Assembly: GCA_963810095.1 (NCBI GenBank)
Contig: CAWEMM010000012.1
Location: forward strand, 1-64,000
Reading direction: 5' to 3'
Origin: an uncultured Chloroflexia bacterium
Lineage (GTDB): Bacteria > Chloroflexota > Anaerolineae > CG2-30-64-16
Length of the DNA: 64,000 bases
The notes under the pieces were generated by a model. That model had not been told where the DNA came from. It did not search any database and saw only the letters and a list, made by a program, of their open reading frames with translations. Below are positions 41,015 to 55,108 of this stretch, piece by piece (position 1 is the first letter of the stretch; each line of letters opens with the position of its first letter). A program made the translations under genes and the position numbers.

Positions 41015-41467
41015 CGATTCTCCCTCGGCTTCGGCCTGCGATCCGGGCGACCGCGAGGTAGGCTTCGGCGTCCAGCAGTCCGGAGACCGGCCACCGGGCG
41101 GGCCGCAGCTCGATGAGCCAGCCTTCGTCGTAGGGGCTGCTGATTGATCAAGCTCGGGCGCATCGGCGAGCGCGGCGTTGGTTGCGACGACCTCGACCCG
41201 CGAACGGCGCCGGAACGGCAAGGTCGACTTTGATGGTCTCGACATTCGCCAGGTCGTCCTCCGCTTCGACGGCGTTACCGACATCAGGCAGTTCCACGAA
41301 CGCGACGTCGCCGCTGGACTGCTGGCGAAAGTCGCGTCAGGCCCACCCGGGCCGCATCCCGTGCCGGGATCATAGTCGACCCACACGCCGGCAGCGGTGT
41401 ACAGGTAGCCGGACCGCACCCGAAAGATGAACTTGTCGACCCGGAACTCAAGGTCATGACCGTTCAT
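41011..41467 (-). CDS. GcvH-like lipoyl carrier protein (indels)
   Basis: [28 protein letters not shown] (lipoyl-Lys equivalent of VESVK), PYDEGWL. Confidence 0.75.
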
Positions 41468-42657
41468 TCTCGTCTCCTTGCCGTGGACCCGCTCGTGGCC
41501 GCGATCATCAGGCGCGGCCCGGTCGCACGGGCGGCGGACAGGCCTCTTCGGCAGCCGCCGTCATGCCGGCAGGCGCGGGCGGCCAACTCGCTCTTGAACC
41601 ACCGGCGCTGCAGCGCGAACGCCACATTGACCAGCGCGATCATGACGGGCACTTCGATCAACGGGCCGATCACGGCCGCAAACGCCTCGCCCGAGGTGAT
41701 GCCGAACACGGCGATCGCGACGGCGATGGCGAGCTCGAAGTTGTTGCTCGCAGCCGTGAAGGACATAGTCGCCGTCATCTTGTAGTTCGCACCTGCGCGA
41801 CGCCCCATCCAGAACGTGACCATGAACATGATCACGAAGTAGAGCACCAACGGGATCGCGATCCGGACGACATCCAGCGGCTGGTTGATGATCTGCTTAC
41901 CCTGCAGGCTGAACATCACGATGATGGTGAAGAGCAGGGCAACCAGCGTAATCGGGCTGATGCGGGGGATGAACTTCGTCTCGTACCACTCCCGGCCCTT
42001 AAGCCGCAACAGGATGAAGCGCGACCCGAAGCCCGCGATCATGGGGATGCCCAGGTAGATGAAGACGGTCCGCGCCAGCTCGCCGATGCTGATCTGCACC
42101 GTGGCGCTCTCCAGCCCCAGCGCCTGCGGCAGGACGGTGATGAAGATGTAGGCATAGACGCTGTAAAAGAGCACCTGGAAGACGCTGTTGAACGCGACCA
42201 GGCCGGCCGCGTACTCGGTGTCGCCCTTGGCCAGCTCGTTCCAGACGATGACCATGGCGATGCAGCGCGCGAGGCCGATGAGGATCAGACCGGTCATGTA
42301 CTCCTGGTTGTAGCCGGCCAGGAAGATGACGGCCAGCACAAACATCAGGATCGGGCCGATGATCCAGTTTTGTACGAGCGACATGCCCAGGACCCTCGTG
42401 TTGCGGAAGACCTCGGGCAGCCGTTCGTACTTCACCTTGGCGAACGGCGGGTACATCATCAGGATGAGGCCGATGGCGATCAGGATGTTCGTGGTGCCGA
42501 TCTGGAACTTGTTGATGAGGCCTTCGAAGCCGGGGATCAGGTAGCCGATGGCGACGCCGAGGGCCATGGCGGCAAAGATCCAGAGGGTCAGGAAACGGTC
42601 CAGCGTTGAGAGCCGTTTCGGGCGGCGGGCGCGGCTGCAACTGCCGATGTGAGTCAT
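41464..42657 (-). CDS. acr3: Acr3-family arsenite efflux transporter
   Basis: [39 protein letters not shown]; own ATG with GAGAGAG upstream. Confidence 0.95.
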
Positions 42658-42699
42658 GTTGCTCTCTCCTTGACTCGATGAAGGCCTGATTTGCCGAGC

Positions 42700-42966
42700 G
42701 CCGTCAGTTGGCGTCCGCCTGCAAGGACGTTGGCCAGCATGGTCACGATCTGCTCGGGTGACGGGCACCCGGCCGCCGCTGAGCAGCTGGTCGTTGACGA
42801 CCAGGCCGGGCGTGGCGAGCAAGTCGTAACGCTGGTACTCGTCCGGCGTCGCCGCTCTTCTCGAAGGTCGCGTCGACGCCGAGTTGCGCGACGCCTGCTT
42901 CGCATTCTGCGCCAGCCGGTCACAGTTGGCGCAGCCGCCGCCTAGAATCTTGATGTGCAGGGTCAT
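42700..42966 (-). CDS. Small thioredoxin-like redox protein (MTH895 type; indels)
   Basis: [19 protein letters not shown]...GRVP. Confidence 0.8.
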
Positions 42967-43043
42967 GTCGCAAGCCTCCGTAACAAGGATGATAGATAGT
43001 GGCGAGAGCCCCGTCTCGCATTGAGCGGGGCCGCGTCAGCAGG

Positions 43044-43414
43044 CTACTCGTATGCCTCGCGCCCTGCGCCACGTTCCACCAGGCACTTGGGGCAGGTGCA
43101 GCAGGCGAGGGCCGTCGCGGACTGCCGGCCGTTGCCGTCGCTCGACGGCAGTCTGCGCAGGCCGCGGCCACCTGGCGCGCCACGTTGTCGTCCGCCAGGC
43201 GGTAGTAAATATTGGTGCCGTCGCGCTCGTCGACGATGACCTTGGCGTTGCGCAGGATCGCCAACTGCTGCGAGACATAGGGTTGCGATTTGTTGAGCGC
43301 CGCGGAGAGGTGGCACACGCACTCGGGCTCGACCCGCAGCAGGTCCACGATCTGCAACCGCACCGGGTGCCCGATCGCCTTGAGCAAGGCGGCCTGTTGG
43401 CGGTAATGTTCCAT
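43044..43414 (-). CDS. arsR: ArsR/SmtB-family regulator (3' indel)
   Basis: KAIGHPVRLQI, ECVCHL, SQQLAILR, C-terminal CTCPKC. Confidence 0.88.
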
Positions 43415-43677: not shown

Positions 43678-46437
43678 ATGGTCAGCACCAAACGCAGCCC
43701 TGCAGGAGAGCGCAAGCCGAGATCGGCGCGCGGGGCCGTCCGGGATGCGCCTGTGGCAGTCAACCAGGCCCAGGCATACGACGTGCGCATCGTGCCGGCC
43801 CAGGTGGCGCCCGGCCAGGAATACTGGCGCGTCGTCAGCGTGCGCCACTTGAGTCCGGACGAGAACCGCGGCAAGCACAACGTGTTTGTCGACGCCCAGG
43901 ACGCTTCCGGTCAGCGCTGTCGAGACGCGGCGCTGCGCATCGGTTGGACGTGGGAGGGGCGCAACCCCCAGGACGCGGCAGACCCGAAGGCGCTCGATAA
44001 GCCGGACACCGAGCCCGCGGGCAACCTGGACGTGTACAAGGGGCAGCATATCGAGCTCTGGATCCAGGGTGATGGCCGGCCCAGCGACCATGTCGCGAAT
44101 TTGCGCACGGACCACCCCGACGAGCCGGGACCGAACGGCGAGTTGTGGAACACGTTATTCCACCACTCATTTTATGTGATCTTCCGTCTCAGCAAGATGG
44201 AGCCGGCGGGAAATGGACAGCAGCCGGGCGCCTCGGGCGCCGGTGCGCCGGGCGCCGGTGCGGGAACCGTCACTTCCCCCTCCAGCCCGCCACCTTCCAG
44301 CACACCGCCTTCCAACCCGCCCACGGCCGCGGGCTCGCCGGGAACGCCGGCGCCGCCCACGAGCGCGCCCGCGACGACTTTCCGCTTCGAGGCCTGGCCG
44401 AGCGAGTACCGGGTCATCACGCAGGCATTCGGCGTCAACCCGCAGAACTACAAGCCGTTCGGGCTGCCGGGGCACGAAGGCCTCGACATCAAGGCGCCGA
44501 CCGGCAGCAAGGTGTTCTGCGTCGCACCGGGGCAGGTCAAACTGATCACTCTCGTGAGCCCCGATCCCAAGAAGCCGGCGTATGGCAACCACGTGCGGGT
44601 GCTCCATGCGGACGGCTACGAGACGATCTACGCGCACCTGCAGTCGATCGCGGTCGAAATGGGGCAGACCGTGGCCGCGGGACAGCTCCTCGGGTTGGCG
44701 GACAGCACGGGCAACAGCACCGGCGCGCACTTGCACCTGACGCTCAAGCATCACGGCGAGTCGTTCGACGGCTATCCCAGCAGTATTGTCGATCCGACGC
44801 CGTTCCTGGCGCCGCTGCTCCAGGCGCAGCCCGCACCCGCAGCCGCAGGCGTGAAGGTGTCCGAAAAGTTGGGCTTAAACTGCAACGCGCCCACAGACGA
44901 CAACGGCAACCTCACCCCCCGCGTCGCAAACCCCCGGCTCATTGCAGATACGGGCGTGGGCTGGGTCCGGCTGAACTTCATCCTGCGGCCGTTCAACAGC
45001 CCCGCCGACGCGGGTTGGGTGGAGAATTACCGGAAGATCATCAAGGGCCTGCGCGACCAGGGGCTCAAGATCTACGGCCTGATCCACGCGCAAGCGGTGA
45101 CGGGCGACCCGGGCAACCAGTTCCGTGACGAGCCGGCAGGCTCGATCGACAACGACTGGATCCGCCGGTATGCCGAGAACTTCCGCATCATCGTCCAGCA
45201 GTTCAAGAACGACGTCGCGGTCTTCGAGTCGTTCAACGAACCCAACGACTGGCACCGGGTGCCGGGCGACCGGCCCTGGGAACAGCCGTGGGTGCATCCG
45301 TACTGGTTCGCCGTGATGCTGCAGAAGGTCTACGATGCGGTGCGCGACCTGAATGTGAAGCTCGTGTCGGGTCCGCTCCTGTCGACGCAATTCGGGAATG
45401 CGGCGGCCGGCTACCTGGCCAAGACCTACGAAGGGGGCGCCAAGTACTTCAAGTGGGGGGCCGGCGCGCCCGTGCCGTTTGACGGCGTCGCGTTCCACCC
45501 GTACGTCCTCATGGATTCTTCCCAGCCCGCGCTCGAGATCCCCCCGCGCTACCAGGACTACATGAAGGGGGTCAAGGACGCGATCACGACGTGGGAGAAG
45601 GGCACGCTGCGGCCGGTCTACATCTCTGAGATCGGCTTCCAGAACGCAGAGGACCGCCAGGTGGAGTGCATGAAGGTGGCCCTTCGCTGCGCGCTGGACG
45701 ACCCGTCCGTCGCGCTCTGCTTCTGGTATGGCATGCAGGACGATCCCGGCGAGTCCTACGGCTTGTATCGTAAGGAGGGCCTGGCGCCCGAACAGCAGAA
45801 GCCGGCGTACCAGGCCTTCGTCGCGCTGGCCCGAGAGGACCGCCGCGTCCCGGTGGCAGCCCTCCGCCCTGCGCCCCTGGTGCCCGATGCCCGTTTCGTC
45901 GCCGAGCTCGATGCGGTGAAGGATGGGACGGTCTTTGCGCCGGGCAGCTCGTTCACCAAGGTCTGGCGCATGCGGAACAGCGGCACGGCCCCATGGGGTG
46001 ACGGCTACAAGCTGGTGCGAATCGACGGGCTGAGTCTGGGCGCACCCGCCTCGATCCCCGTGCCCGCCTGCCCGCCGGGTCAAACGGTCGACCTCGCGGT
46101 CCCATTCGTGGTACCGCCGGAACCCGCGACGTGCACGAGCAGGTGGCAGCTCGTCGATCCGACCGGCAAACGCTTCGGCCAACCGGTCTGGACGACCATC
46201 AAGGTGCAGGCGCCGGTTGCCCCCGGCGTCGCGGCCAAGGACCTGTTCGGCGCCGAACCGTCCGAGCTCCTCGCGCCGGCCGCGGGACAGACGGCCGTCG
46301 CCGCCGCGCTCGGCATCATCTACACGACCTACTGGTTGCGGGTGCAGGCCGCCCAATCCGCCGCTGACCCGCAGCAGGCGCTGCGCGAGGCGGCCGAGGA
46401 CGCGCTCGCACAAATCAGGGCGTGGACGGCGACCTGA
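43678..46437 (+). CDS. Multidomain protein: unknown N-domain, M23 peptidase, GH-A-clan-like glycoside hydrolase, NBR1-like Ig domain
   Basis: M23 HEGLD/YAHL/HLHL; GH WVRLNF, FNEP, FHPY, ISEIG; NBR1 FTKVWRMRNSG...W. Confidence 0.85.
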   Translation: MVSTKRSPAGERKPRSARGAVRDAPVAVNQAQAYDVRIVPAQVAPGQEYWRVVSVRHLSPDENRGKHNVFVDAQDASGQRCRDAALRIGWTWEGRNPQDAADPKALDKPDTEPAGNLDVYKGQHIELWIQGDGRPSDHVANLRTDHPDEPGPNGELWNTLFHHSFYVIFRLSKMEPAGNGQQPGASGAGAPGAGAGTVTSPSSPPPSSTPPSNPPTAAGSPGTPAPPTSAPATTFRFEAWPSEYRVITQAFGVNPQNYKPFGLPGHEGLDIKAPTGSKVFCVAPGQVKLITLVSPDPKKPAYGNHVRVLHADGYETIYAHLQSIAVEMGQTVAAGQLLGLADSTGNSTGAHLHLTLKHHGESFDGYPSSIVDPTPFLAPLLQAQPAPAAAGVKVSEKLGLNCNAPTDDNGNLTPRVANPRLIADTGVGWVRLNFILRPFNSPADAGWVENYRKIIKGLRDQGLKIYGLIHAQAVTGDPGNQFRDEPAGSIDNDWIRRYAENFRIIVQQFKNDVAVFESFNEPNDWHRVPGDRPWEQPWVHPYWFAVMLQKVYDAVRDLNVKLVSGPLLSTQFGNAAAGYLAKTYEGGAKYFKWGAGAPVPFDGVAFHPYVLMDSSQPALEIPPRYQDYMKGVKDAITTWEKGTLRPVYISEIGFQNAEDRQVECMKVALRCALDDPSVALCFWYGMQDDPGESYGLYRKEGLAPEQQKPAYQAFVALAREDRRVPVAALRPAPLVPDARFVAELDAVKDGTVFAPGSSFTKVWRMRNSGTAPWGDGYKLVRIDGLSLGAPASIPVPACPPGQTVDLAVPFVVPPEPATCTSRWQLVDPTGKRFGQPVWTTIKVQAPVAPGVAAKDLFGAEPSELLAPAAGQTAVAAALGIIYTTYWLRVQAAQSAADPQQALREAAEDALAQIRAWTAT

Positions 46438-46483: not shown

Positions 46484-46745
46484 ACTGCTCGCAGGCAGCC
46501 TCTGCCGAGGTAGCCGCTGCCCGGGGGGCGCACAGTTCGCCTTGACAGCACAATTCACAAGAACGATGCACCAATTCCATTAAAATGGTTGTATAATCGT
46601 AGCGCCAACTAGCATTGCGAGCTTGCACCGCCGTTCTCAATATGCTCCAGAGCCAACAATGCTGAGGCCGGCTGCATCGTCAGCAGGCGGCTTTCTGTGT
46701 TGGACCGTGCCGGTTCTCGTGCGTTTCAGGACGGGGGTCACGGTC

Positions 46746-48572
46746 ATGGTAGTTGGGCTCTTCCGGTACAAGAACTTCGACCTCGAAGTCACGGAGTCCG
46801 ATGACGGCGCCTACCTAGCCGTTGCCTCCAGCGACCTCTTGCCATCGTCCGGACCCGTCAAGGCTCGTTTCTGCCTGCCATTCTCCGAAGAAGAACTCGC
46901 CCACTTTCCCGCGCCGGGCGGCTTTGCCCGTCGCCTGTCCCCAGTCCGCGACGCCCGGGTCACCCGCGCAGCGGCCCCTGCCGCTCTCGACGCAGCCGAA
47001 TTCGGACGTCGCCTCTTCGCAGCCGTCTTTGACGACGAGCAGGGACAGCCCAACGATGCGGGTGCGCTCCTCATGGCGTGCCTCCACGCCCTAAACGACC
47101 GTATCGGGCTCCGGATTCGTCTCGACCTCTGCCCTGCGCTGGCCGTTCTACCCTGGGAGTATCTGAGCTCGCCCCACGAAGATCCCTTCGCACTGTCCAA
47201 TAGAACGCCTGTCGTGCGAGTGCGCAAGGGCGACTGCCCCGCGCCAGACAACGCCGCGGTCGAAGCGCCTCTGCGGGTGCTCGCCATCATCTCGCCCGCC
47301 AGCAGCGACCTGGACCTGGCCGGGGAGTGGGAGGAACTGCAGACCGCACTGAGCGATCTCGTGACGTGGAAGTACGTCGAGATCGACCTACTCCAACGCC
47401 CGACGTTAGCCGGTCTGCAGGATGTACTGCGCGAGCACGAGTATCACGTCATTCATTTCATGGGCCACGGCGGCTTTGACGACGCGACGAATCAAGCGGT
47501 GCTCCTCTTCGACAAGGAGACGCCGGCCGAACACCTGGCCCGCCACCTGGGCAACCACCCACCCAAGCTCGTCTTCCTCAATGCATGTAACAGCGGCAAG
47601 AGCTCGCCAAACGACGCACTGGCCGGCGCGGCCCAGGGCCTGATCGCGAAGCAGGTGCCCGAGGTCGTTGCGATGCAGTTCCCCATCGGCGACCGGGCCG
47701 CGGTGCTGCTGGCGCGGGAGTTCTACGAGGCCATCGCCGACGGCTACCCGGTCGAGGCCGCGCTGAGTGAGGCCCGGCTGGCCGTCCTCGACTCGCAGCA
47801 GCAGGACGAGTGGAGCACGCCGGTGCTGTTCAGCTGCGGCACAGGCAGCATGGCGCTGGACCTGCCCGAACCGCCCCCACCCTACCGGCCGGGAACCGGC
47901 GAGCCTGAGACCGTGGTCATCCCGGCAGGGCGCTTCTGGTTTGGCAGCGGGGTGCCCGAAGATCAGCAGGGCGGCGCAGACCTGCCGCGCCAGCTCCGCC
48001 TGCCCACCTACGCAATCGGGAAGTACCCCGTTCGGAACGACGAATATGCCGGTTTCCTGAGCGAACCGAAGAACCGCAAGTATCTCCCGAGCGATCCCGG
48101 TTGGACCGTCATCGACCCACCCGCGGGACGGGAGGCAGCACCGGTTGTTGGCCTGACATGGGAAGCAGCCTGCGTCTACTGCGAGTGGCTGAGCCAGACC
48201 ACAGGCCAGCGCTACCGCCTGCCCACGGAAGCCGAATGGGAAAAGGCGGCCCGGGGCGACCAGGACCAGCGGCGCTACCCCTGGGGCAATGATCCCGCCG
48301 GCGCCCGCGCGCCAAGCCCCTACGGCTGCTGTGACATGGTAGGCACGATTTACGAGTGGACCTGCACCAAGTGGGACGGCGATCCAACAGCAGTATTTGG
48401 CCCGCATGAGGCGGGATCGTTGTCCGTCCGTGCGTCTGATGACGCTCTGACCCAGCGCGGCGGGCCTTTCAAGGCTGGTCAGCCGGCCGGGAACTGCAGT
48501 ACCCGGCGCCGCCAGCCGGGGTTGCGGACGTCTCAGAGCGTGGGCTTTCGGGTCGTGCGGGTCGTCGGTTGA
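46746..48572 (+). CDS. CHAT (caspase-like) protease fused to an FGE-sulfatase (SUMF1) domain
   Basis: LPWEYL, HFMGHG, FLNACNS, VVAMQ; YRLPTEAEWEKAARG, YPWG, DMVG...EW, GFRV. Confidence 0.9.
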   Translation: MVVGLFRYKNFDLEVTESDDGAYLAVASSDLLPSSGPVKARFCLPFSEEELAHFPAPGGFARRLSPVRDARVTRAAAPAALDAAEFGRRLFAAVFDDEQGQPNDAGALLMACLHALNDRIGLRIRLDLCPALAVLPWEYLSSPHEDPFALSNRTPVVRVRKGDCPAPDNAAVEAPLRVLAIISPASSDLDLAGEWEELQTALSDLVTWKYVEIDLLQRPTLAGLQDVLREHEYHVIHFMGHGGFDDATNQAVLLFDKETPAEHLARHLGNHPPKLVFLNACNSGKSSPNDALAGAAQGLIAKQVPEVVAMQFPIGDRAAVLLAREFYEAIADGYPVEAALSEARLAVLDSQQQDEWSTPVLFSCGTGSMALDLPEPPPPYRPGTGEPETVVIPAGRFWFGSGVPEDQQGGADLPRQLRLPTYAIGKYPVRNDEYAGFLSEPKNRKYLPSDPGWTVIDPPAGREAAPVVGLTWEAACVYCEWLSQTTGQRYRLPTEAEWEKAARGDQDQRRYPWGNDPAGARAPSPYGCCDMVGTIYEWTCTKWDGDPTAVFGPHEAGSLSVRASDDALTQRGGPFKAGQPAGNCSTRRRQPGLRTSQSVGFRVVRVVG

Positions 48573-48604
48573 TGGAGCGAGGCGGGGCTTAGGAGGCGAA
48601 CGGG

Positions 48605-49654
48605 ATGGACGACGAACAAGTGCAGACCGCAGCCCGGCGAATAAAAGAGGGTACGTGCACGCCGATCATCAGCAACGAACTCATCATCGACCAGTATTTC
48701 GGCCAGGAAGCCGCAGGCAAGCTGGCGGGTGATTGGGCGCGCAGCGAGAGGGTGGGCTATCCCCTCGAATTGGACGAGGACAAGTACGACCTGTCCTGCA
48801 TCGCCCAGTACTGCTCGACTGTCAAGGGCTCCAGCGCAGCAAAAAGTATGTATCACGATCATCTCAAAAAGAGGTTTATCGAGGATGTCAAAAAAGCCGA
48901 TGCTCGGGCCGATGTGGACGACATCGACGAGCAGCGGGGAGACTTTACGTTCACGCAACTGGTCCTCGAACAACTCCAGCACCCGGGGTTCGGCCAACGC
49001 CTGGCGCCGGCCGCAGACGGAGCAGGCGACGGAACCACCCGAACGATCGTCGAGACGCTCGCGACCTTCAAGGCAAAGGTCTTTATCACCACCAGCCCGC
49101 ACACATTTCTCGAGAGTGCGCTGAAAAAGTACCAGAAGACACCGCGCAGCAAAGTCTACGACCCTCTGTGGGCTTCTCGGGGCGAGGATGACGCCGGCGC
49201 GACCGGAACGGGGGAAGCAACGAAGAGTGACGAGTGGAACCCGATGGTGTACCACTTGCTGGGCAAGGAAGACTTTGACGACTCGCTCGTGCTTTCTGAG
49301 GATGATTACCTGAGCGTGTTGCCAAGACTGTTCGAGGACCGCAAGAACACCAAGGTCGTGCCCGGCGAAGTGAGCGACGCCTTGACCCGCAGTTACCTGC
49401 TGCTGTTGGGGTACGACGTCGCCAGTTGGGAATTCAGAATCGTGCTCCGGCTCATTGCAACCCAGTACCCGCGACCACGCGGCATCGCGGTGCAGATCGA
49501 TCCGTACCGGGCGCCCGGCAAGGTAAAGGACCGCGACGCATACCTGGCCTACCTGAAGAAGGTGTTTGGCGACCCGGAACTCACCGTCTTTGCCGGCACG
49601 CCGTGGCAGCTTGTCGGCGACCTTGCCAAACGGCTGAAAGGGGGATCGCCGTGA
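48605..49654 (+). CDS. SIR2-like domain protein (divergent motifs)
   Basis: FITTS, VYHLLG, SLVLSEDDY, LLLLGY...WEFR. Confidence 0.75.
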   Translation: MDDEQVQTAARRIKEGTCTPIISNELIIDQYFGQEAAGKLAGDWARSERVGYPLELDEDKYDLSCIAQYCSTVKGSSAAKSMYHDHLKKRFIEDVKKADARADVDDIDEQRGDFTFTQLVLEQLQHPGFGQRLAPAADGAGDGTTRTIVETLATFKAKVFITTSPHTFLESALKKYQKTPRSKVYDPLWASRGEDDAGATGTGEATKSDEWNPMVYHLLGKEDFDDSLVLSEDDYLSVLPRLFEDRKNTKVVPGEVSDALTRSYLLLLGYDVASWEFRIVLRLIATQYPRPRGIAVQIDPYRAPGKVKDRDAYLAYLKKVFGDPELTVFAGTPWQLVGDLAKRLKGGSP

Positions 49655-52600
49655 CCAACGCAGTTTCAAGCGATGCAGCCGCCGTGGTCGCGGCCGCGCC
49701 GGTCGACGCACCCTTGGTCCCCCTGCCGGCGGAACCCAAGGAAATGCCCAACCCTTACGTCGGACCGCGGCCCTTCACGAAGGAGGAAGCCGCGCTCTTC
49801 TTCGGTCGAGATCACGAGTCGTCGGACCTGCGGACCCTCGTTTTCGTCGACCGGATCGTGCTCTTCGATGCAGCGTCGGGCGCGGGCAAAAGCTCGCTCC
49901 TCAACGCGGCGCTGCGGCAGAAGCTGAAAGAAGACCATTTCGACCTGGTGCCCGCCGACACGGCCAAGGCGCAGAGCGGCCGGGTGCGCGGCAGCTCCGC
50001 GGTCGAGGCCCCCGCCAACGTTCCCAACATCTTCGTCTACAACCTCCTCACCAGCATCGACGAAGGCAGACATACGGCCGGCGAGCTTGCGACCATGACG
50101 CTCAAGGCCTACCTGGACGAGCTGCCGGCCCCACCGCCGGGGCCCGACCGGGAACGGGTGGCACGGGTGCTGATCGTCGACCAGTTCGAAGAGATCTTTA
50201 CGTCGCACCTGGACCGCTGGGAAGACCGGGCAGGGTTCTTCAGGCAGCTGCGGGAGGCTGTCACGCCCCCCAAGGCCGACAATTCTGGCAACGGAGGCGG
50301 CCCGCTCAAGCCCGACATCTTCGTCATCCTGGCCATGCGCGACGATGCGGCGGCGATGCTTGACCAATACGCGCACCTGCTGCCCGGGCCGCCTGCGCAC
50401 CCGCTTCAACATGCAGCGCCTGGACCACGAGGCGGCGCTGTTGGCGATCCAGGGGCCGGCGGCGAATGCGGGACGACCCTTCGCCGAGGGCGTCGCCGAA
50501 GCGCTGCGCGACAACCTGTCCCTGGTCGACAACCCGGAGCGCAGACCCGAGAAGTACCAGGCCGAGTTCATCGAGCCGGTGCAGTTACAGGTTGTCTGCT
50601 GGCAGCTCTGGGAGGAACTCAGGTCGATGCCGTGCGGCGAGGCCGGCGACTTGCCCCTGGCTGCCGGCGCCGCGCCCGTGGCGCCGGCGAAGCCATGCCC
50701 GATCACCATGGAGCAGCTCCTGGCCGTGGCCCAGAAGCTTACCGGGGAGCCAGACCTGGGGACGTTTGTCGACGGCGCGCTGCAGCGCTTCTACGAAAAC
50801 GTCATGTCGGGGTCGGCCGGCAGCTTGGGTCTCACGGAGTTCGAGCTGCGCTCGTGGGTCGAGGACGAGCTAATTACCGGGCAGGGCACCCGCAACCTGG
50901 TCGACCAAGGCGAAACGAAAACCGCGGGGCTGCCAAATACGGCCGTCGAGGAGCTAAAAAAGCGGCTGCTGCTCCACCAGGAAGAACGGGGCGCGGTCCA
51001 GTTCTTCGAGCTGTTTCACGACCGGCTCGTAACGCCGATCAAGCTGTCCAATGCCGAATGGTTCAAGAAGCAGGATGTATCCCTGCAGAAAGCCGCGAGT
51101 GGAAGAAGTTCGACTCGCTTGGCAAGGGCGACGAGTGGTTGGCCCGCGGCGCCGGCCTGAAACGGGTCAGGAGCTACGTCGAGGCGGCGCAGGGGGCGGG
51201 GCAGCGGGTGCCGCCCGACCTGGTCACCTTCCTGAAAGCAAGCCAGGAGAAGGAAGCCGCCGCCAAACAGGGACGCAATTACGTCGCCCTGCTCCTGGGC
51301 TTTCTCGGCCTGCTGCTGGTCCTCGGCGTCATCTGGTCGCGTTATGTCGACAGCACGAACCAGAAAATCGCGGCCCGGGCCGACCTGGCGGGCCTGCATG
51401 CCGGCCAGATCAGCGACAAGCAGGGTGTGGCCGCAAACCCTGCGGTCGAGCCCCAGCTGAGCTTGCTGCTGGCAGTCGAGGCGCTCGACAGCATCGAGGT
51501 GGGCGGGTTTGAGGAACTGCTGGACCAGCAGTTCGGCGGCAGCAAGATCGCGCACGCGCGCACTGCCCTCCTTGGCAAGCTGCAGAGCGTGTTATCCGAG
51601 ACGGGCGGCGTGCCATTGCGGGCCGGACATGCGGTGACTGCCACCGCGGTGCTATCCTCGAGCGTCGCGGTCAGCCCGGACGGGCGCTGGGTTGCCGGCC
51701 TCGAGGCCGGCGCGGCTCCCAAGCTGCACATCTGGGACCTCCGGGGCAATCCGCCTGACGAGGAACCGGGGTCGCGGCCAGTCGACGCGACCACCATCAC
51801 CACGCTGGCGCTCGACGGGAAGGGCTCGGGGCTGTTCGTGGGTCACGACGACGGAAGCGTTGAGTATGTCTCGTTCGCCGACCGCCAGCCCCAGGCGCTG
51901 CCCGGTATCAAGGGGCAACAGCCCGTCACCCTGCTCGCCACGAGTCCGAGCCCGGGCCGCTGGCTCGCCCTGGCGGATGGGACGACAGAACTGGCGCTCT
52001 ACCCACTGAATCCCGAAGGCGCTCCGGGCCCCGTGCAGACGCTGCCCGGCCATGTCGGCGGAGTGCGGTCGGCTGTCTTCAGCCCCAACGGCAGCGTGGC
52101 TGGCCACGGTCGACGGCGAGGATCGCCTGCGCTTGTGGGATCTGCGAGGGGTTGCGGGCGCCGCAGTAGACGATGCCCGGCTGGGCGAGGCAGCCGGCCG
52201 CATTGTTGCCTTCAGCCAGGACGCGCAAGATCCGGCCTGGGTCGCAGCCGCCGGCCCCGAAGCCAATGTCGTCTACCTGTGGCGACTGCCGCTCAGCCCC
52301 GGATCGGCCGCGTACAAGATCAAGTTCGGCGCGCAAACGGACGCACCGGTTGCCGCGCTCGCGTTTGCCCGGCCTGTCGACGGACCGGCCAGATACCTGG
52401 TCGTGAGCCACACGGACGGCAAAATCATCCTGTGGCATCTGCCCACCGATCAGGATCGCGAAGAGCTGGCTGCGGCGCTGGCAGCCGAAGAGCAGGTCGC
52501 GGCGGCCGGTTCGGCCGAGAGCACGGCCGGGGCGCCCAAAACGGGCGCGGCCGGCTCAGGCCCGATTGGCGAGGACGATGGCAGCCCACCGTCAGACACA

Positions 52601-53206
52601 GGCCCTATCGGCCAGGACGATAGCAGCACACAGGCGAACGCCGGCCCTATCGGCCAGGATGGCGAGTCCGGCGCGACCCCGACCGGAGCGCCGGCGATGG
52701 ACTCCTATCCGGACCGCTGGCCGCCTATCGTGCTGACCACCCCGGGCCGGCCGCTCGTCGCGGCCAGTGGCAAGTGGCTGCTCACCGCGAGCGCCGGCGA
52801 CCCTCGCCTTTGCCGGTGGGATATCACCGAGCTGGAGCAGGGAAAGGTGTATCAAAGCCGGGTGCTAGAGCCGCCGTCCGAGGGACAGGACACGAAGCCG
52901 CCCGCTTCTTGTACGCCCATGAGCGGGCACGAAGACCCGGTGACGGCGCTGTATGCGGCGTGGATCCCGAAAGACGGGCTGCCGGGCTGGCTCAGCGTGG
53001 ACGAGCACGGCATACGGTATTGGCAGCCGCCGGGGGCCGCCGAGGGACAGCCGGCCGGCGATGGAAAGACTCTCTCGTCGCAGCTCAAGGAGCAGGCGTG
53101 CCGGAGGGCCGGCCGAGCGCTGACCCCGGGCGAGCTGGAGCGATTTATCCTGGCGAGCGCTCCGGGCGACGCGCAGTCGACCTGCGAGCGAATTCTGGGC
53201 GAATAG
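49651..53206 (+). CDS. STAND (nSTAND1-like) NTPase, TM helix, WD40-like repeats (indels near 50390, 51090, 52095)
   Basis: NPYVGPRPF...FFGR, ASGAGKSS, VDQFEE, QLQVVC, ELFHD; TM YVALLLGFLGLLLVLGVIW; SPDGRW, GHVGGVRSAVFSPNG, LWD; terminal ACRRAGRALT; GTGA overlap with the SIR2 gene. Confidence 0.85.
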
Positions 53207-53246
53207 CCGGAAGGCATGGTGGGCCGCTCGGCTCAGGAGGTGGAGT

Positions 53247-54137
53247 ATGGCGTTCACGCGACACGCAGGCTTGAAGTGGTTGCTGCTAGGCGGCCTGTTT
53301 CTTGCATTGGCCCTCATGCTGCTGAGCAGCCGGGCCGCGGCTGCGGCATGCGGCGGAGGGATCAAGTTTGGCAGCCAGACCTCGGACTGGATCGAGCGCA
53401 GCGGAGACCAGTGCGAGTACTTCTACGAGTACACCGGCGACGGGCAGACCGCAAAGGAAATCACCATTGCGATGCTCGGCGTCTCGCTCGACGAGCCGTC
53501 CCTCGCGCTGTATGCGCCGGGCAGCCGCACGCCGATGACGGGGGCGGACTGCGAGAAGCCAGTCGAGCGTCTTAGCCGGCTCAGTCCCACACCTGCACCA
53601 ACACCCTCACTCGCCCTAAGGGTCAAGCCGTCGCTGAGCCGGGCCCTGGCTGTCAGCCGGGAGGCGTCGATCTCATGTTACCTGAAGAAGCCGGGTATCT
53701 ACCGTATCGTGGCCGCCCGTGACCCCAACGCCCGGGCCGGCACGGCAACGGGCCAGTTCGTGCTCAATCTCTGTGGGACGCACATCGCCAGCCCGTACGA
53801 CGAGACACTCGAGGCGCCGCGCGACGGCGAGATCGAGCGGAAGGGGCTCGCGTGCTACAGCTTCGAGGCTCAGCCGAACGACTGTGTCACGATCGCGATG
53901 AACAAGAACCGCAAGGTGGCCGGGAACACGCTCGACCCCTGGCTGGACCTTCGCGACCCTGCAGGCACGATCATCGCATCGGACGACAACAGCAACGAGA
54001 ACGACAATGCGGCGATCCGAAACTTCTGCCTGAAGAAGCCCGGACTCTACACGATCATCGCGCGCTCGTACGATTTCAGCGGGAGCGGCCCGTTCAAATT
54101 CTACTTCACCCTGAAAGAGGCGCCCGCGAAGCGCTGA
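53247..54137 (+). CDS. Secreted protein with two PPC-like (pre-peptidase C-terminal) domains
   Basis: Signal-peptide-like N-terminus; YSFEA...VTIAM...LDPWLDLRDPAG...DDN...LKKPGLYTIIAR; Cys-rich. Confidence 0.75.
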   Translation: MAFTRHAGLKWLLLGGLFLALALMLLSSRAAAAACGGGIKFGSQTSDWIERSGDQCEYFYEYTGDGQTAKEITIAMLGVSLDEPSLALYAPGSRTPMTGADCEKPVERLSRLSPTPAPTPSLALRVKPSLSRALAVSREASISCYLKKPGIYRIVAARDPNARAGTATGQFVLNLCGTHIASPYDETLEAPRDGEIERKGLACYSFEAQPNDCVTIAMNKNRKVAGNTLDPWLDLRDPAGTIIASDDNSNENDNAAIRNFCLKKPGLYTIIARSYDFSGSGPFKFYFTLKEAPAKR

Positions 54138-54295
54138 GGCGCGCTCGTCGAGTCAGGGGTGCAACCTGCCCGGTCCTTGCAGCACCGGGCGCGTGAGAAC
54201 GCGTGCCGGCTCCTGACAGCGCTTTACGCCTCACGCAACACTGGGGCTCTCCATTCGTATTGGCGAGAGGATCATCAGTCCTTAGGAGCGATACA

Positions 54296-55108
54296 GTGGA
54301 GATCATCCTCGTCGTCGCCGGCGGCGTCGTGCTGCTGGCCTTGATCGCCTGGCTAGGCATTTCGATACAACCCCGGTCGTTCGGTCCCTACCCGGAAGCG
54401 TCAAAGCAACCCCAAACCGTCCCGCTGCCTGCGGGCCTGCCGCCACCCGTCGAGCGCTTCTACCGCACGATCTACGGCGACCACATCCCTGTGATCACGT
54501 CGGCGGTGGTCACGGGCCGGGCGGCGATGCGGCCCTTCGGCCCTCTCGCCCTTCCCGCACGCCTGCGCTTCATCCACGAGGCCGGCAAGGGCTACCGGCA
54601 CTACATCGAGATCACCTTGTTCGGTCTGCCGGTTATGAAGGTGAATGAGTGGTACCTGGACGGCCGTGGGCGCATGGAGCTGCCGTTTGGCACGGATGAG
54701 GGCCCCAAGACGGACCAAGGAGCCAATCTGGGGATGTGGTCAGAGTCCGTGTGGTTTCCTTCCATCTGGCTCACCGACCCGCGGGTGCGGTGGGTGCCGG
54801 TGGACGACGTCACCGCGTTGCTGGTCGTGCCGTTTGGCGAGGACGAAGAACATTATGTGGTTCGCTTCGACCCGGCGACCCACCTGACGATGTGGATGGA
54901 GTCGATGCGCTACCAGGGCCCAAAGAGCCCCGCGAAAATCCTGTGGCTCAACAAGTCGGTTCAGTGGAGCGATCGGGAGGGCAAGCCGTTCGCAAGCCGG
55001 GGTGCGGCGATCTGGATGGACAATGGTAAGCCCTGGGCTACCTTCACCGTGGAGGACGTCGTCTACAACGTCGACGTGTCCGCGGCCGTCCGCGCAAAGG
55101 GATTGTAG
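54296..55108 (+). CDS. Membrane-anchored DUF6544-like protein
   Basis: N-terminal TM; [25 protein letters not shown]. Confidence 0.65.

Follow-up and report, generated by a model that had tools for sequence, protein, structure and literature searches.

Can an NLR-like STAND ATPase act as a switch across the bacterial membrane, with its sensor facing outwards? To our knowledge, trigger sensing takes place in the cytoplasm in every prokaryotic STAND/NLR-like immune protein characterised so far, and outside-in logic has so far been ascribed to Toll-like and receptor-kinase systems, not to STAND proteins. The question is raised by a locus in a 64,000-nucleotide stretch of DNA from an uncultured Chloroflexia bacterium, hereafter the window. 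Between 46.7 and 54.1 kb, the list of open reading frames (ORFs) and Pfam searches place four closely spaced, co-oriented genes on the + strand. These are a gene for a CHAT domain with an FGE-sulfatase domain (CHAT-FGE, 46746-48572), a stand-alone SIR2_2-like gene encoding 349 residues (48605-49654), a STAND gene encoding an nSTAND1 NTPase, a transmembrane helix and WD40 repeats (49651-53206, a coding stretch with three frame changes) and a PPC-type gene with a signal-like N-terminus (53247-54137). Such a row of genes had been described in a sequence-only reading of this DNA as a candidate trans-membrane conflict or cell-death system; the layout was borne out, and the order recurs in dozens of genomes. 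We favour, with moderate confidence, the view that the locus represents a widespread multi-gene module that has a membrane-spanning, NLR-like STAND ATPase at its core and a conflict-type, outside-in mechanism.

Predicted membrane topology of the STAND ATPase

The nSTAND1 domain (PF20703) was found on 49651-50370 with an E-value of 1.2e-22 (81.6 bits against a cut-off of 27.1), and a custom nSTAND1 hidden Markov model (HMM) matched with its positions 1-193 and 183-397 on two frames. Both the Walker A motif (GAGKSS, in SGAGKSS) and the Walker B motif (DQFEE, in VDQFEE) are intact, and the GAGK and DQFEE columns are invariant in 43 homologues. According to Pfam, the NTPase module begins at residue 35 and an N-terminal domain is absent. 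WD40 repeats were detected on 51052-52098 (2.2e-7) and weakly on 52052-53203 (0.0032), a custom WD40 HMM also matched, and the outer part of the protein carries a low-complexity insert with GPIG(E/Q)DD repeats. Between the NTPase and the repeats lies a hydrophobic span of 19 residues, VALLLGFLGLLLVLGVIWS, with a mean Kyte-Doolittle hydropathy of 2.59. The protein is thereby predicted to consist of a cytoplasmic part formed by the nSTAND1 module and a helical linker (49651-51282), a single transmembrane helix (51283-51339) with the NTPase inside and the repeats outside, and an extracytoplasmic part comprising a linker and WD40-type beta-propeller repeats (51340-53206).

A helix at this place is a property of the family. 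It follows the NTPase in 15 of 16 homologues from related loci, the sixteenth ORF being a WD40-only fragment. Of the 120 best-matching homologues from the database, 109 have at least one such helix and 104 exactly one, mostly at residues 460-560; seven of the 11 proteins without it are shorter than 630 residues. Among complete NTPases with a tail from the 80 loci of a wider survey (see below), 64 of 71 carry the helix; in another three, a helix is seen if the threshold is lowered or the search extended farther from the NTPase. The homologous helices have a mean hydropathy of 2.0-3.2 over 19 residues and an uncharged span of about 25 residues on average. The lysine and arginine content of the 15 residues flanking the helix, counted in 106 proteins, averages 5.5 on the N-terminal side and 2.1 on the C-terminal side; the N-terminal flank is the richer in 101 proteins, equal in four and poorer in one. 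By the positive-inside rule, the positively charged flank of a membrane helix lies in the cytoplasm; this excess therefore points to an NTPase inside and a tail outside. The sequence-only reading had placed a helix between the NTPase and the WD40-like repeats and the propeller outside the cell, and both claims gain support from these homologues. That the STAND ATPase spans the membrane once, with a predicted extracytoplasmic variable domain (WD40 in this case), is well supported by the comparison.

The domains found by Pfam past the helix in other members are WD40, FGE, PD40/DPPIV_N, Peptidase_M23 with SH3_3, Peptidase_M14, PPC (two or three copies) and TPR; an nSTAND1-helix-FGE architecture is present in L012, L013 and L014 (L numbers denote the surveyed loci). 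In addition, the genes adjoining the STAND genes often have signal-like N-termini. It could be argued that the hydrophobic segment does not span the membrane and that the WD40 sensor is cytoplasmic, as in other STAND proteins: in the portions available of PMC8195603 and PMC13581612, FGE and WD40 STAND sensors are treated as intracellular, and in those of PMC10907252, Dore et al. predicted a cytoplasmic location for one nSTAND1-FGE target. However, the strength of the hydropathy, the length of the uncharged span, the strong positive-inside bias and the nature of the post-helix tails, which are typical secreted or envelope domains, all speak against this explanation. So do the helix-less relatives: of the four examined with Pfam, L069, L072 and L079 have TPR straight past the NTPase, and L081 has a weak Peptidase_C25-like match. 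We consider a cytoplasmic sensor very improbable. As a separate observation, nSTAND1 in the stop-to-stop ORF at L038:3822-8399 is preceded by about eight additional hydrophobic segments, which could be a fused multi-pass membrane domain or a read-through upstream gene.

The membrane-spanning ATPase predicted here is encoded by a gene that is interrupted in the assembly. It is read in frame 1, frame 2 (from ~50384), frame 1 (from ~51093) and again frame 2, with breaks on the + strand at 50383-50388 (one surplus base in the run cccggg), at 51093-51094 (one G missing) and at 52092-52119 (one surplus base near agc-g-tgg, inside a WD40 blade, FSPNGS/WLATVDG). The sequence-only reading had already held that indel-corrected proteins were needed, and these three breaks prove it right. 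A real pseudogene in a decaying locus would account for three frame changes within 3.6 kb, and no compared contig bridges the third site (52092-52123). Nevertheless, essential genes are split alike in the source genome (6.13 Mb in 16 contigs, 88.5% complete): rpoC is spread over at least three frames, and the C-terminus of rpoB lies in another frame than the rest (C14:146935-155374). Further nSTAND1 genes of the same genome are frame-split too. A 3.9-kb Logan contig of soil run X1, 97.7% identical to the window here, does not have the surplus base at 50383 and has the G behind 51093, and this G is also present in a contig of run X6 from an independent study. An intact orthologue (P0001, 1253 residues) reads through and is collinear with all four STAND pieces by tblastn, its junction at break 3 falling at 52082-52119. 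The frames are stop-free throughout and have a high third-position GC content; the plot of this GC content by frame is too noisy to call frameshifts alone.

Because rpoB and rpoC are split, two of the indels are absent from close-strain contigs and P0001 is intact, the three breaks look like assembly errors and not gene decay. We rejected a real pseudogene on the splitting of rpoB and rpoC and regard it as highly improbable. The splitting of these two genes therefore indicates frequent single-base indels in the assembly and false pseudogenes in gene calls genome-wide, and the breaks in the STAND gene should not be annotated as pseudogenes. In the spacer past the PPC gene, one base at 54146 is absent in contigs of runs X1 and X5, probably another assembly indel. 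Along the STAND protein, the identity to P0001 in the tblastn pieces falls from 89% through 79% and 63% to 41%, and therefore the outer part diverges fastest.

Conserved gene order and presumed cytoplasmic partners

The conservation of the module was surveyed twice. In the first survey, the SIR2-like protein was compared with 40 related genomes and its own genome, and the 60 proteins of the resulting 13 loci were scanned with Pfam. Matches were found in 13 of the 41 genomes, with a closest identity of 38%, and there was no orthologue in the seven same-genus genomes searched. In all 13 loci (relatives and a paralogue in the own genome), nSTAND1 comes immediately after the SIR2-like gene or domain; the genes of L011 are arranged as nSTAND1, PPC and CHAT-SIR2. 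What precedes the SIR2-like part varies: a separate CHAT-FGE gene in L012, L016 and L019, an EAD1-FGE or EAD7-FGE gene in L013, L014 and L018, FGE alone in L023, a CHAT domain fused to the SIR2-like domain in L011, L015, L017, L020 and the own paralogue L022, and a triple fusion of CHAT, FGE and SIR2 in L021. In the second survey, an alignment of the SIR2-like family was compared with species-representative genomes, giving 598 pattern hits and 555 relatives, of which 80 loci were kept; HMMs built from the sequences gathered here were then run over the stop-to-stop ORFs of these loci. The SIR2-like gene is followed by nSTAND1 in 82 of the 84 cases with room downstream; L092, with its changed order, and one of the copies in L067 deviate. 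The 86 SIR2-like genes were preceded by a CHAT+FGE gene in 22 cases, by an FGE gene in 15 and by another gene or none in 26; 19 were CHAT-SIR2 fusions, and four had no room. By record titles, the 80 loci are mostly from Chloroflexota, with other hosts among Candidatus Electronema, Accumulibacter, Geomonas, Verrucomicrobiota, Ignavibacteriales, Acidobacteriota, Planctomycetota and Actinomycetota. These synteny counts, which agree with the shared system proposed earlier, rule out unrelated neighbours, and the notion that the SIR2-like, nSTAND1 and CHAT genes form one conserved unit is well supported at the level of gene order. The direct contact between the SIR2-like gene and the STAND gene in the window, a GTGA at 49651-49654 in which the stop of the former overlaps the start of the latter, was also found as first described and marks the pair as translationally coupled.

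Several other observations were made in these loci. The genome from which the window comes has two SIR2-like/nSTAND1 modules as well as further nSTAND1 genes. The second module (L022, C6:1605343-1611251) consists of a CHAT-SIR2-like fusion in which the canonical Asn is retained (TTN), an nSTAND1-helix-WD40 protein and a Peptidase_C25-like protein. In L012, an AbiEii-type gene (L012:7907-8815) lies between two tandem SIR2-like/nSTAND1 modules. In L014 only, a reverse transcriptase gene (RVT_1, L014:11794-12849) lies past an nSTAND1-TPR-FGE gene and may be part of a diversity-generating retroelement.

The first gene of the window locus (46746-48572, with an alternative upstream TTG start at 46623) encodes a CHAT domain of the caspase-like protease type (PF12770, 2.1e-30, 106.6 bits against a cut-off of 24) and a C-terminal FGE-sulfatase domain of the C-type-lectin fold (PF03781, 3.1e-36, 125.8 bits against 23.3). 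Its translation contains the motifs HFMGHG and NAC. All 12 CHAT-FGE proteins that were aligned share H241, G242 and C281, and many FGE residues are likewise invariant; the claim that the CHAT His and Cys motifs are intact thus holds. Being without a signal peptide or a transmembrane helix, the CHAT-FGE protein is presumably cytoplasmic. Separately encoded partners, set against the single-chain Avs proteins in the sequence-only reading, are what the locus contains, and these partners lack signal peptides. PADLOC matched the CHAT protein to SAVED_CHAT (6.1e-13) and marginally to BovA (0.0086). With NCBIfam, no match of the locus proteins reached its curated cut-off: a HetF-like match of the CHAT part (1.2e-9) and matches of the FGE domain to EgtB, SenA and PvdO were all far under theirs. 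The FGE domain of the CHAT and EAD proteins is strongly conserved between loci and shares 31-34% identity with the post-helix FGE domain of the STAND protein in the same locus. Its character seems to be that of a constant domain in the cytoplasm and not of a hypervariable sensor.

The SIR2-like protein (48605-49654) is the constant neighbour of the NTPase. It matches SIR2_2 at 1.5e-11 (45 bits against a cut-off of 24.5), and its AlphaFold2 model, based on 83 sequences, has a pLDDT of 88.2 and a pTM of 0.90. In Foldseek searches, this model matched ThsA (8btp/7uxt, ~6e-10), DSR2 and KomC with E-values from 6e-10 to 1e-7, a probability of 1.00 and query-normalised TM-scores of 0.50-0.60. The protein therefore shares its fold and the Pfam family SIR2_2 with the defence NADases ThsA (of Thoeris), DSR2 and KomC/HAM-SIR2. 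The active site is different. PIISN stands at the position of the GAG loop, Ser164 at that of Asn and Leu219 at that of His, and a profile alignment to solved SIR2 NADases (7uxt and KomC) likewise sets Ile-Val-Ser-Asn under GAGLS, Ser under Asn and Leu under His. The catalytic residues of ThsA we take to be the Asn of TTNYD and the His of xHG; the titles of the structure entries KomC(H146N) and DSR2(H171A) are consistent with this His. Among the best 150 of 1688 representative clusters (E <= 0.001), 112 have Ser and 17 have Asn at the Asn position, and the His position is Phe in 74, His in 32, Tyr in 25 and Leu in 16; both canonical residues are present in seven and neither in 108. In the same 150 representatives, His217, which lies two residues ahead of the canonical His on the same strand, is kept in 145 and is family-specific, and T162, E170, W189, E232, D233/D234, R278 and Q297 are near-invariant.

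Because the glycine loop, the catalytic Asn and the catalytic His are all replaced, the SIR2-like protein is probably not a canonical NADase and no standard NADase effector, while apparently remaining under constraint. The idea of a SIR2 effector, put forward in the sequence-only reading, is weakened accordingly. Classical Thoeris and DSR systems were rejected for want of their partner genes and of the catalytic residues: neither SLOG nor TIR nor any other Thoeris partner is present, and the partner in the window is a STAND NTPase. A constant adaptor or regulator fits these sequences, because the protein keeps its place beside the NTPase while the upstream module varies. Alternatively, the protein may be a true effector that uses the relocated His217 to degrade NAD+ or a related nucleotide upon STAND activation, with CHAT as a second effector. 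The retention of His217, the many further near-invariant columns and the closeness of the fold to the defence NADases would suit such an enzyme, and a residue two positions earlier on a beta strand would, by structural reasoning, face the same side. However, an effector of this kind would have to work with P-I-I-S-N in place of the glycine-rich dinucleotide loop, in a family in which the Asn position is mostly Ser, 115 of the 150 representatives have Phe, Tyr or Leu instead of the canonical His and both residues are so seldom retained together; moreover, its fixed position by the NTPase, with a varying upstream module, suits a constant adaptor. A relocated active site is thus an idea that we think rather unlikely. 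A two-chain complex prediction for residues 1-540 of P0001 and the SIR2-like protein of the window, both supplied as alignments, gave a score of 0.00, which speaks neither for nor against an interaction.

Envelope-type and flanking genes

The last gene of the row (53247-54137, +) encodes a protein with a hydrophobic, signal-like N-terminal segment, in line with the signal peptide reported before, and a PPC domain (PF04151, 6.9e-5) whose 24.1 bits are just below the cut-off of 25.9. Only domain-level matches, at residues ~143-291, were found in seven other genomes. Proteins with PPC domains are encoded next to STAND genes of this kind in L011/L092, L015 and the own genome (C7:73221-74834), and PPC domains are fused past the helix in L054, L090 and P0049 according to Pfam. 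In L051, the fusion was detected by the custom PPC HMM only, Pfam PPC not being among the 25 of 46 families listed. The partnership with a PPC protein proposed in the sequence-only reading is therefore weakened: PPC domains only occasionally stand beside or are fused to such STAND proteins, and the full-length protein has no homologue in the other 400 Chloroflexota genomes searched. We suggest that the PPC protein is a secreted or anchored outer accessory that joins such systems only sporadically. Elsewhere in the own genome, at C7:68530-74834, a frame-split nSTAND1-helix-WD40 gene is followed by a gene for a PPC protein with a signal anchor, and a SIR2-like gene is absent beside it.

Just upstream of the CHAT gene, a co-oriented gene (43678-46437, +) encodes a protein of 919 residues with Peptidase_M23, GH5-like and NBR1-type Ig domains by Pfam. 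A homologue, 40-59% identical, lies directly downstream of a like system in a metagenome-assembled genome of Chloroflexia (L076:13619-16657), and M23 domains are fused past the nSTAND1 helix in L044, L065, P0023 and P0025. This gene may be a fifth component, a weak suggestion based on one other locus.

Farther out, the gene at 54203-55108 (+), 66 nucleotides past the PPC gene, encodes a DUF6544 protein (1.2e-32) whose N-terminus forms a hydrophobic helix; tblastn detected no such neighbour of the system in the other loci. Upstream, at 41467-43414 (-), are genes for an ArsR-type regulator and an ACR3/SBF-type transporter fused to a thioredoxin-like domain, a pair that looks like the arsenic-resistance type and unrelated to the four-gene locus. 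A scan for promoters and terminators found no promoter-like site, and five terminator-like sites against 6.1 expected.

Relation to described systems and proposed function

The nSTAND1 domain was named by Kaur et al. (2021, eLife, PMC8195603) within the STAND NTPase-FGS systems, which the available portions of that paper describe as intracellular sensors of invaders. The module in the window shares with these systems the nSTAND1 clade (PF20703), the partners CHAT/caspase, EAD1/EAD7, TIR and FGE-sulfatase (there 'FGS'), an occasional reverse transcriptase and the enrichment in filamentous or multicellular bacteria. In contrast to them, as far as the paper was available, the NTPase in the window has no effector or EAD on its N-terminus; EAD1 and EAD7 in L013, L014 and L018 are on the upstream FGE gene and never on the NTPase. 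In addition, the C-terminus of the NTPase, which bears FGS in the described systems, bears a helix and WD40 repeats in the window, and FGE is on the separate CHAT protein. The helix is predicted to put the C-terminal domain outside, and the SIR2-like protein is a constant neighbour. In the text and supplements of PMC8195603, so far as available and with the figures outside that search, neither SIR2 nor a membrane helix is linked to nSTAND1, and the available portions of Kaur et al. (2020, PMC7159879) contain no mention of SIR2.

Two further groups of STAND proteins are close to the module. In the available portions of Dore et al. (2024, PNAS, PMC10907252), nSTAND1-FGE proteins are targets of diversity-generating retroelements, and both cytoplasmic and periplasmic sensor locations are discussed. 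These diversified STAND/CLec sensors share nSTAND1, FGE or C-type-lectin domains and CHAT or TIR partners with the module; unlike them, the system in the window has a conserved FGE domain and WD40 repeats as its outer sensor, and no reverse transcriptase was found by Pfam among window ORFs 26076-63998, the remaining genome lying outside that search. With Avs and other bacterial NLR-like STAND proteins (PMC13581612; bioRxiv 10.1101/2022.07.19.500537, as far as available), the module shares an NTPase switch, repeat or lectin-type sensors and death effectors including caspase-like proteases. The Avs type, however, is single-chain and cytoplasmic and senses phage proteins inside the cell, whereas the module in the window is multi-gene and, by prediction, membrane-spanning. 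A 2026 survey of STAND proteins (PMC13581612) lists WD40 and FGE sensors, and its available portions place no transmembrane helix between NTPase and sensor, the single 'TM' mention being an abbreviation in a figure legend. With respect to novelty, the earlier claim stands in part: nSTAND1 systems with FGE-type domains and CHAT or EAD partners have been described computationally (PMC8195603, in its available portions), and no PADLOC model matches beyond CHAT. The module thus appears to belong with the described nSTAND1 conflict systems, from which it differs by a sensor predicted to face outwards and by a constant, catalytically non-canonical SIR2-like partner.

The nearest likeness in topology is found elsewhere. 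Transmembrane Ser/Thr kinases of the PknD/PknB type combine a cytoplasmic enzyme, a single transmembrane helix and an extracellular sensor made of a beta-propeller or PASTA domains. The logic is alike, but the cytoplasmic module in the window is a STAND NTPase, and there is no homology.

We propose that the outward propeller, possibly together with the secreted PPC protein, would bind a ligand or respond to a change of the envelope, candidate triggers being damage to the wall, a phage particle or a molecule that comes from a neighbour. The trigger would lead to nucleotide-dependent oligomerisation of the cytoplasmic NTPase, which may then recruit or release the SIR2-like protein as a constant adaptor or regulator. 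The CHAT protease would thereby be activated and would cut cellular targets, resulting in growth arrest or cell death within the filament. A conflict role is favoured by the patchy presence of the system among relatives, by the several diversified copies per genome, by the swappable and fast-diverging outer domain and by the CHAT, TIR and EAD partners with AbiEii or reverse-transcriptase genes occasionally near. In its most specific form, the proposal sees a family of surface-facing, NLR-like receptors whose swappable outer domain would sense threats or damage at the envelope before entry and whose ATPase would fire a caspase-like protease through a remodelled SIR2 adaptor. We put forward this form tentatively, with somewhat less than even confidence.

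Several points weigh against this interpretation. We found no published experiment on any member, so that function, ligand and output are all deduced from sequence, and the published view of FGE and WD40 STAND sensors is one of intracellular sensing (PMC8195603 and PMC13581612, in their available portions). The topology is based on hydropathy and on the charge bias calculated with a custom script. In PADLOC, only the CHAT protein was matched; the SIR2-like and PPC proteins and all four pieces of the NTPase hit no family. Among 104 flanking ORFs of 20 related loci (seven ORFs of L027 were left out as near-duplicates of L026), 12 had PADLOC matches, mostly to generic domains; about 3 of the 104 were defence-specific (TIR, methyltransferase and PtuB-like), a figure without a control set. 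The defence role assigned to the locus by the sequence-only reading is thus a deduction from the architecture that gains little from PADLOC. In the window, the flanks of the locus contain metabolic genes. Furthermore, the cytoplasmic FGE domain is conserved and not variable, the PPC protein has no full-length counterpart among the Chloroflexota genomes searched, and the position of His217 leaves room for a SIR2-like enzyme with a moved active site.

The same architecture could also serve purposes other than immunity, namely outside-in signalling for envelope surveillance, filament development, fragmentation or kin recognition. In this case CHAT would have a regulatory role like that of cyanobacterial HetF. 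The peptidoglycan-related M23, M14 and SH3_3 tails past the helix, the M23/GH5 protein adjacent both in the window and in L076, the mostly housekeeping nature of the flanking genes and the weak HetF-like match (1.2e-9, far under its cut-off) are all compatible with signalling. Searches for mobility point the same way: there was no match in phage records, only two distant matches in plasmid or chromid-size records and no sign of mobility. However, the patchy presence among close relatives, the several diversified copies per genome and the swappable, quickly diverging outer domain speak against it, and conflict systems typically have TIR, CHAT and EAD partners and now and then a reverse transcriptase or AbiEii nearby (PMC8195603, in its available portions). 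We therefore treat signalling as an unlikely alternative that nonetheless deserves weight and retain the conflict-type, outside-in module as the favoured interpretation.

The family is large, with 1688 representative SIR2-like clusters (E <= 0.001) and at least 555 hits in species-representative genomes. Its constant SIR2-like partner, which is without the canonical catalytic residues, would be a clear example of the fold of a defence enzyme taken over for an adaptor, or else for an enzyme with a moved active site. If the sensor faces outwards, STAND switches would also serve trans-membrane signalling, and bacteria living in filaments could start protease-based responses from the cell surface. 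This would amount to outside-in innate immunity, or programmed death, on an NLR chassis.

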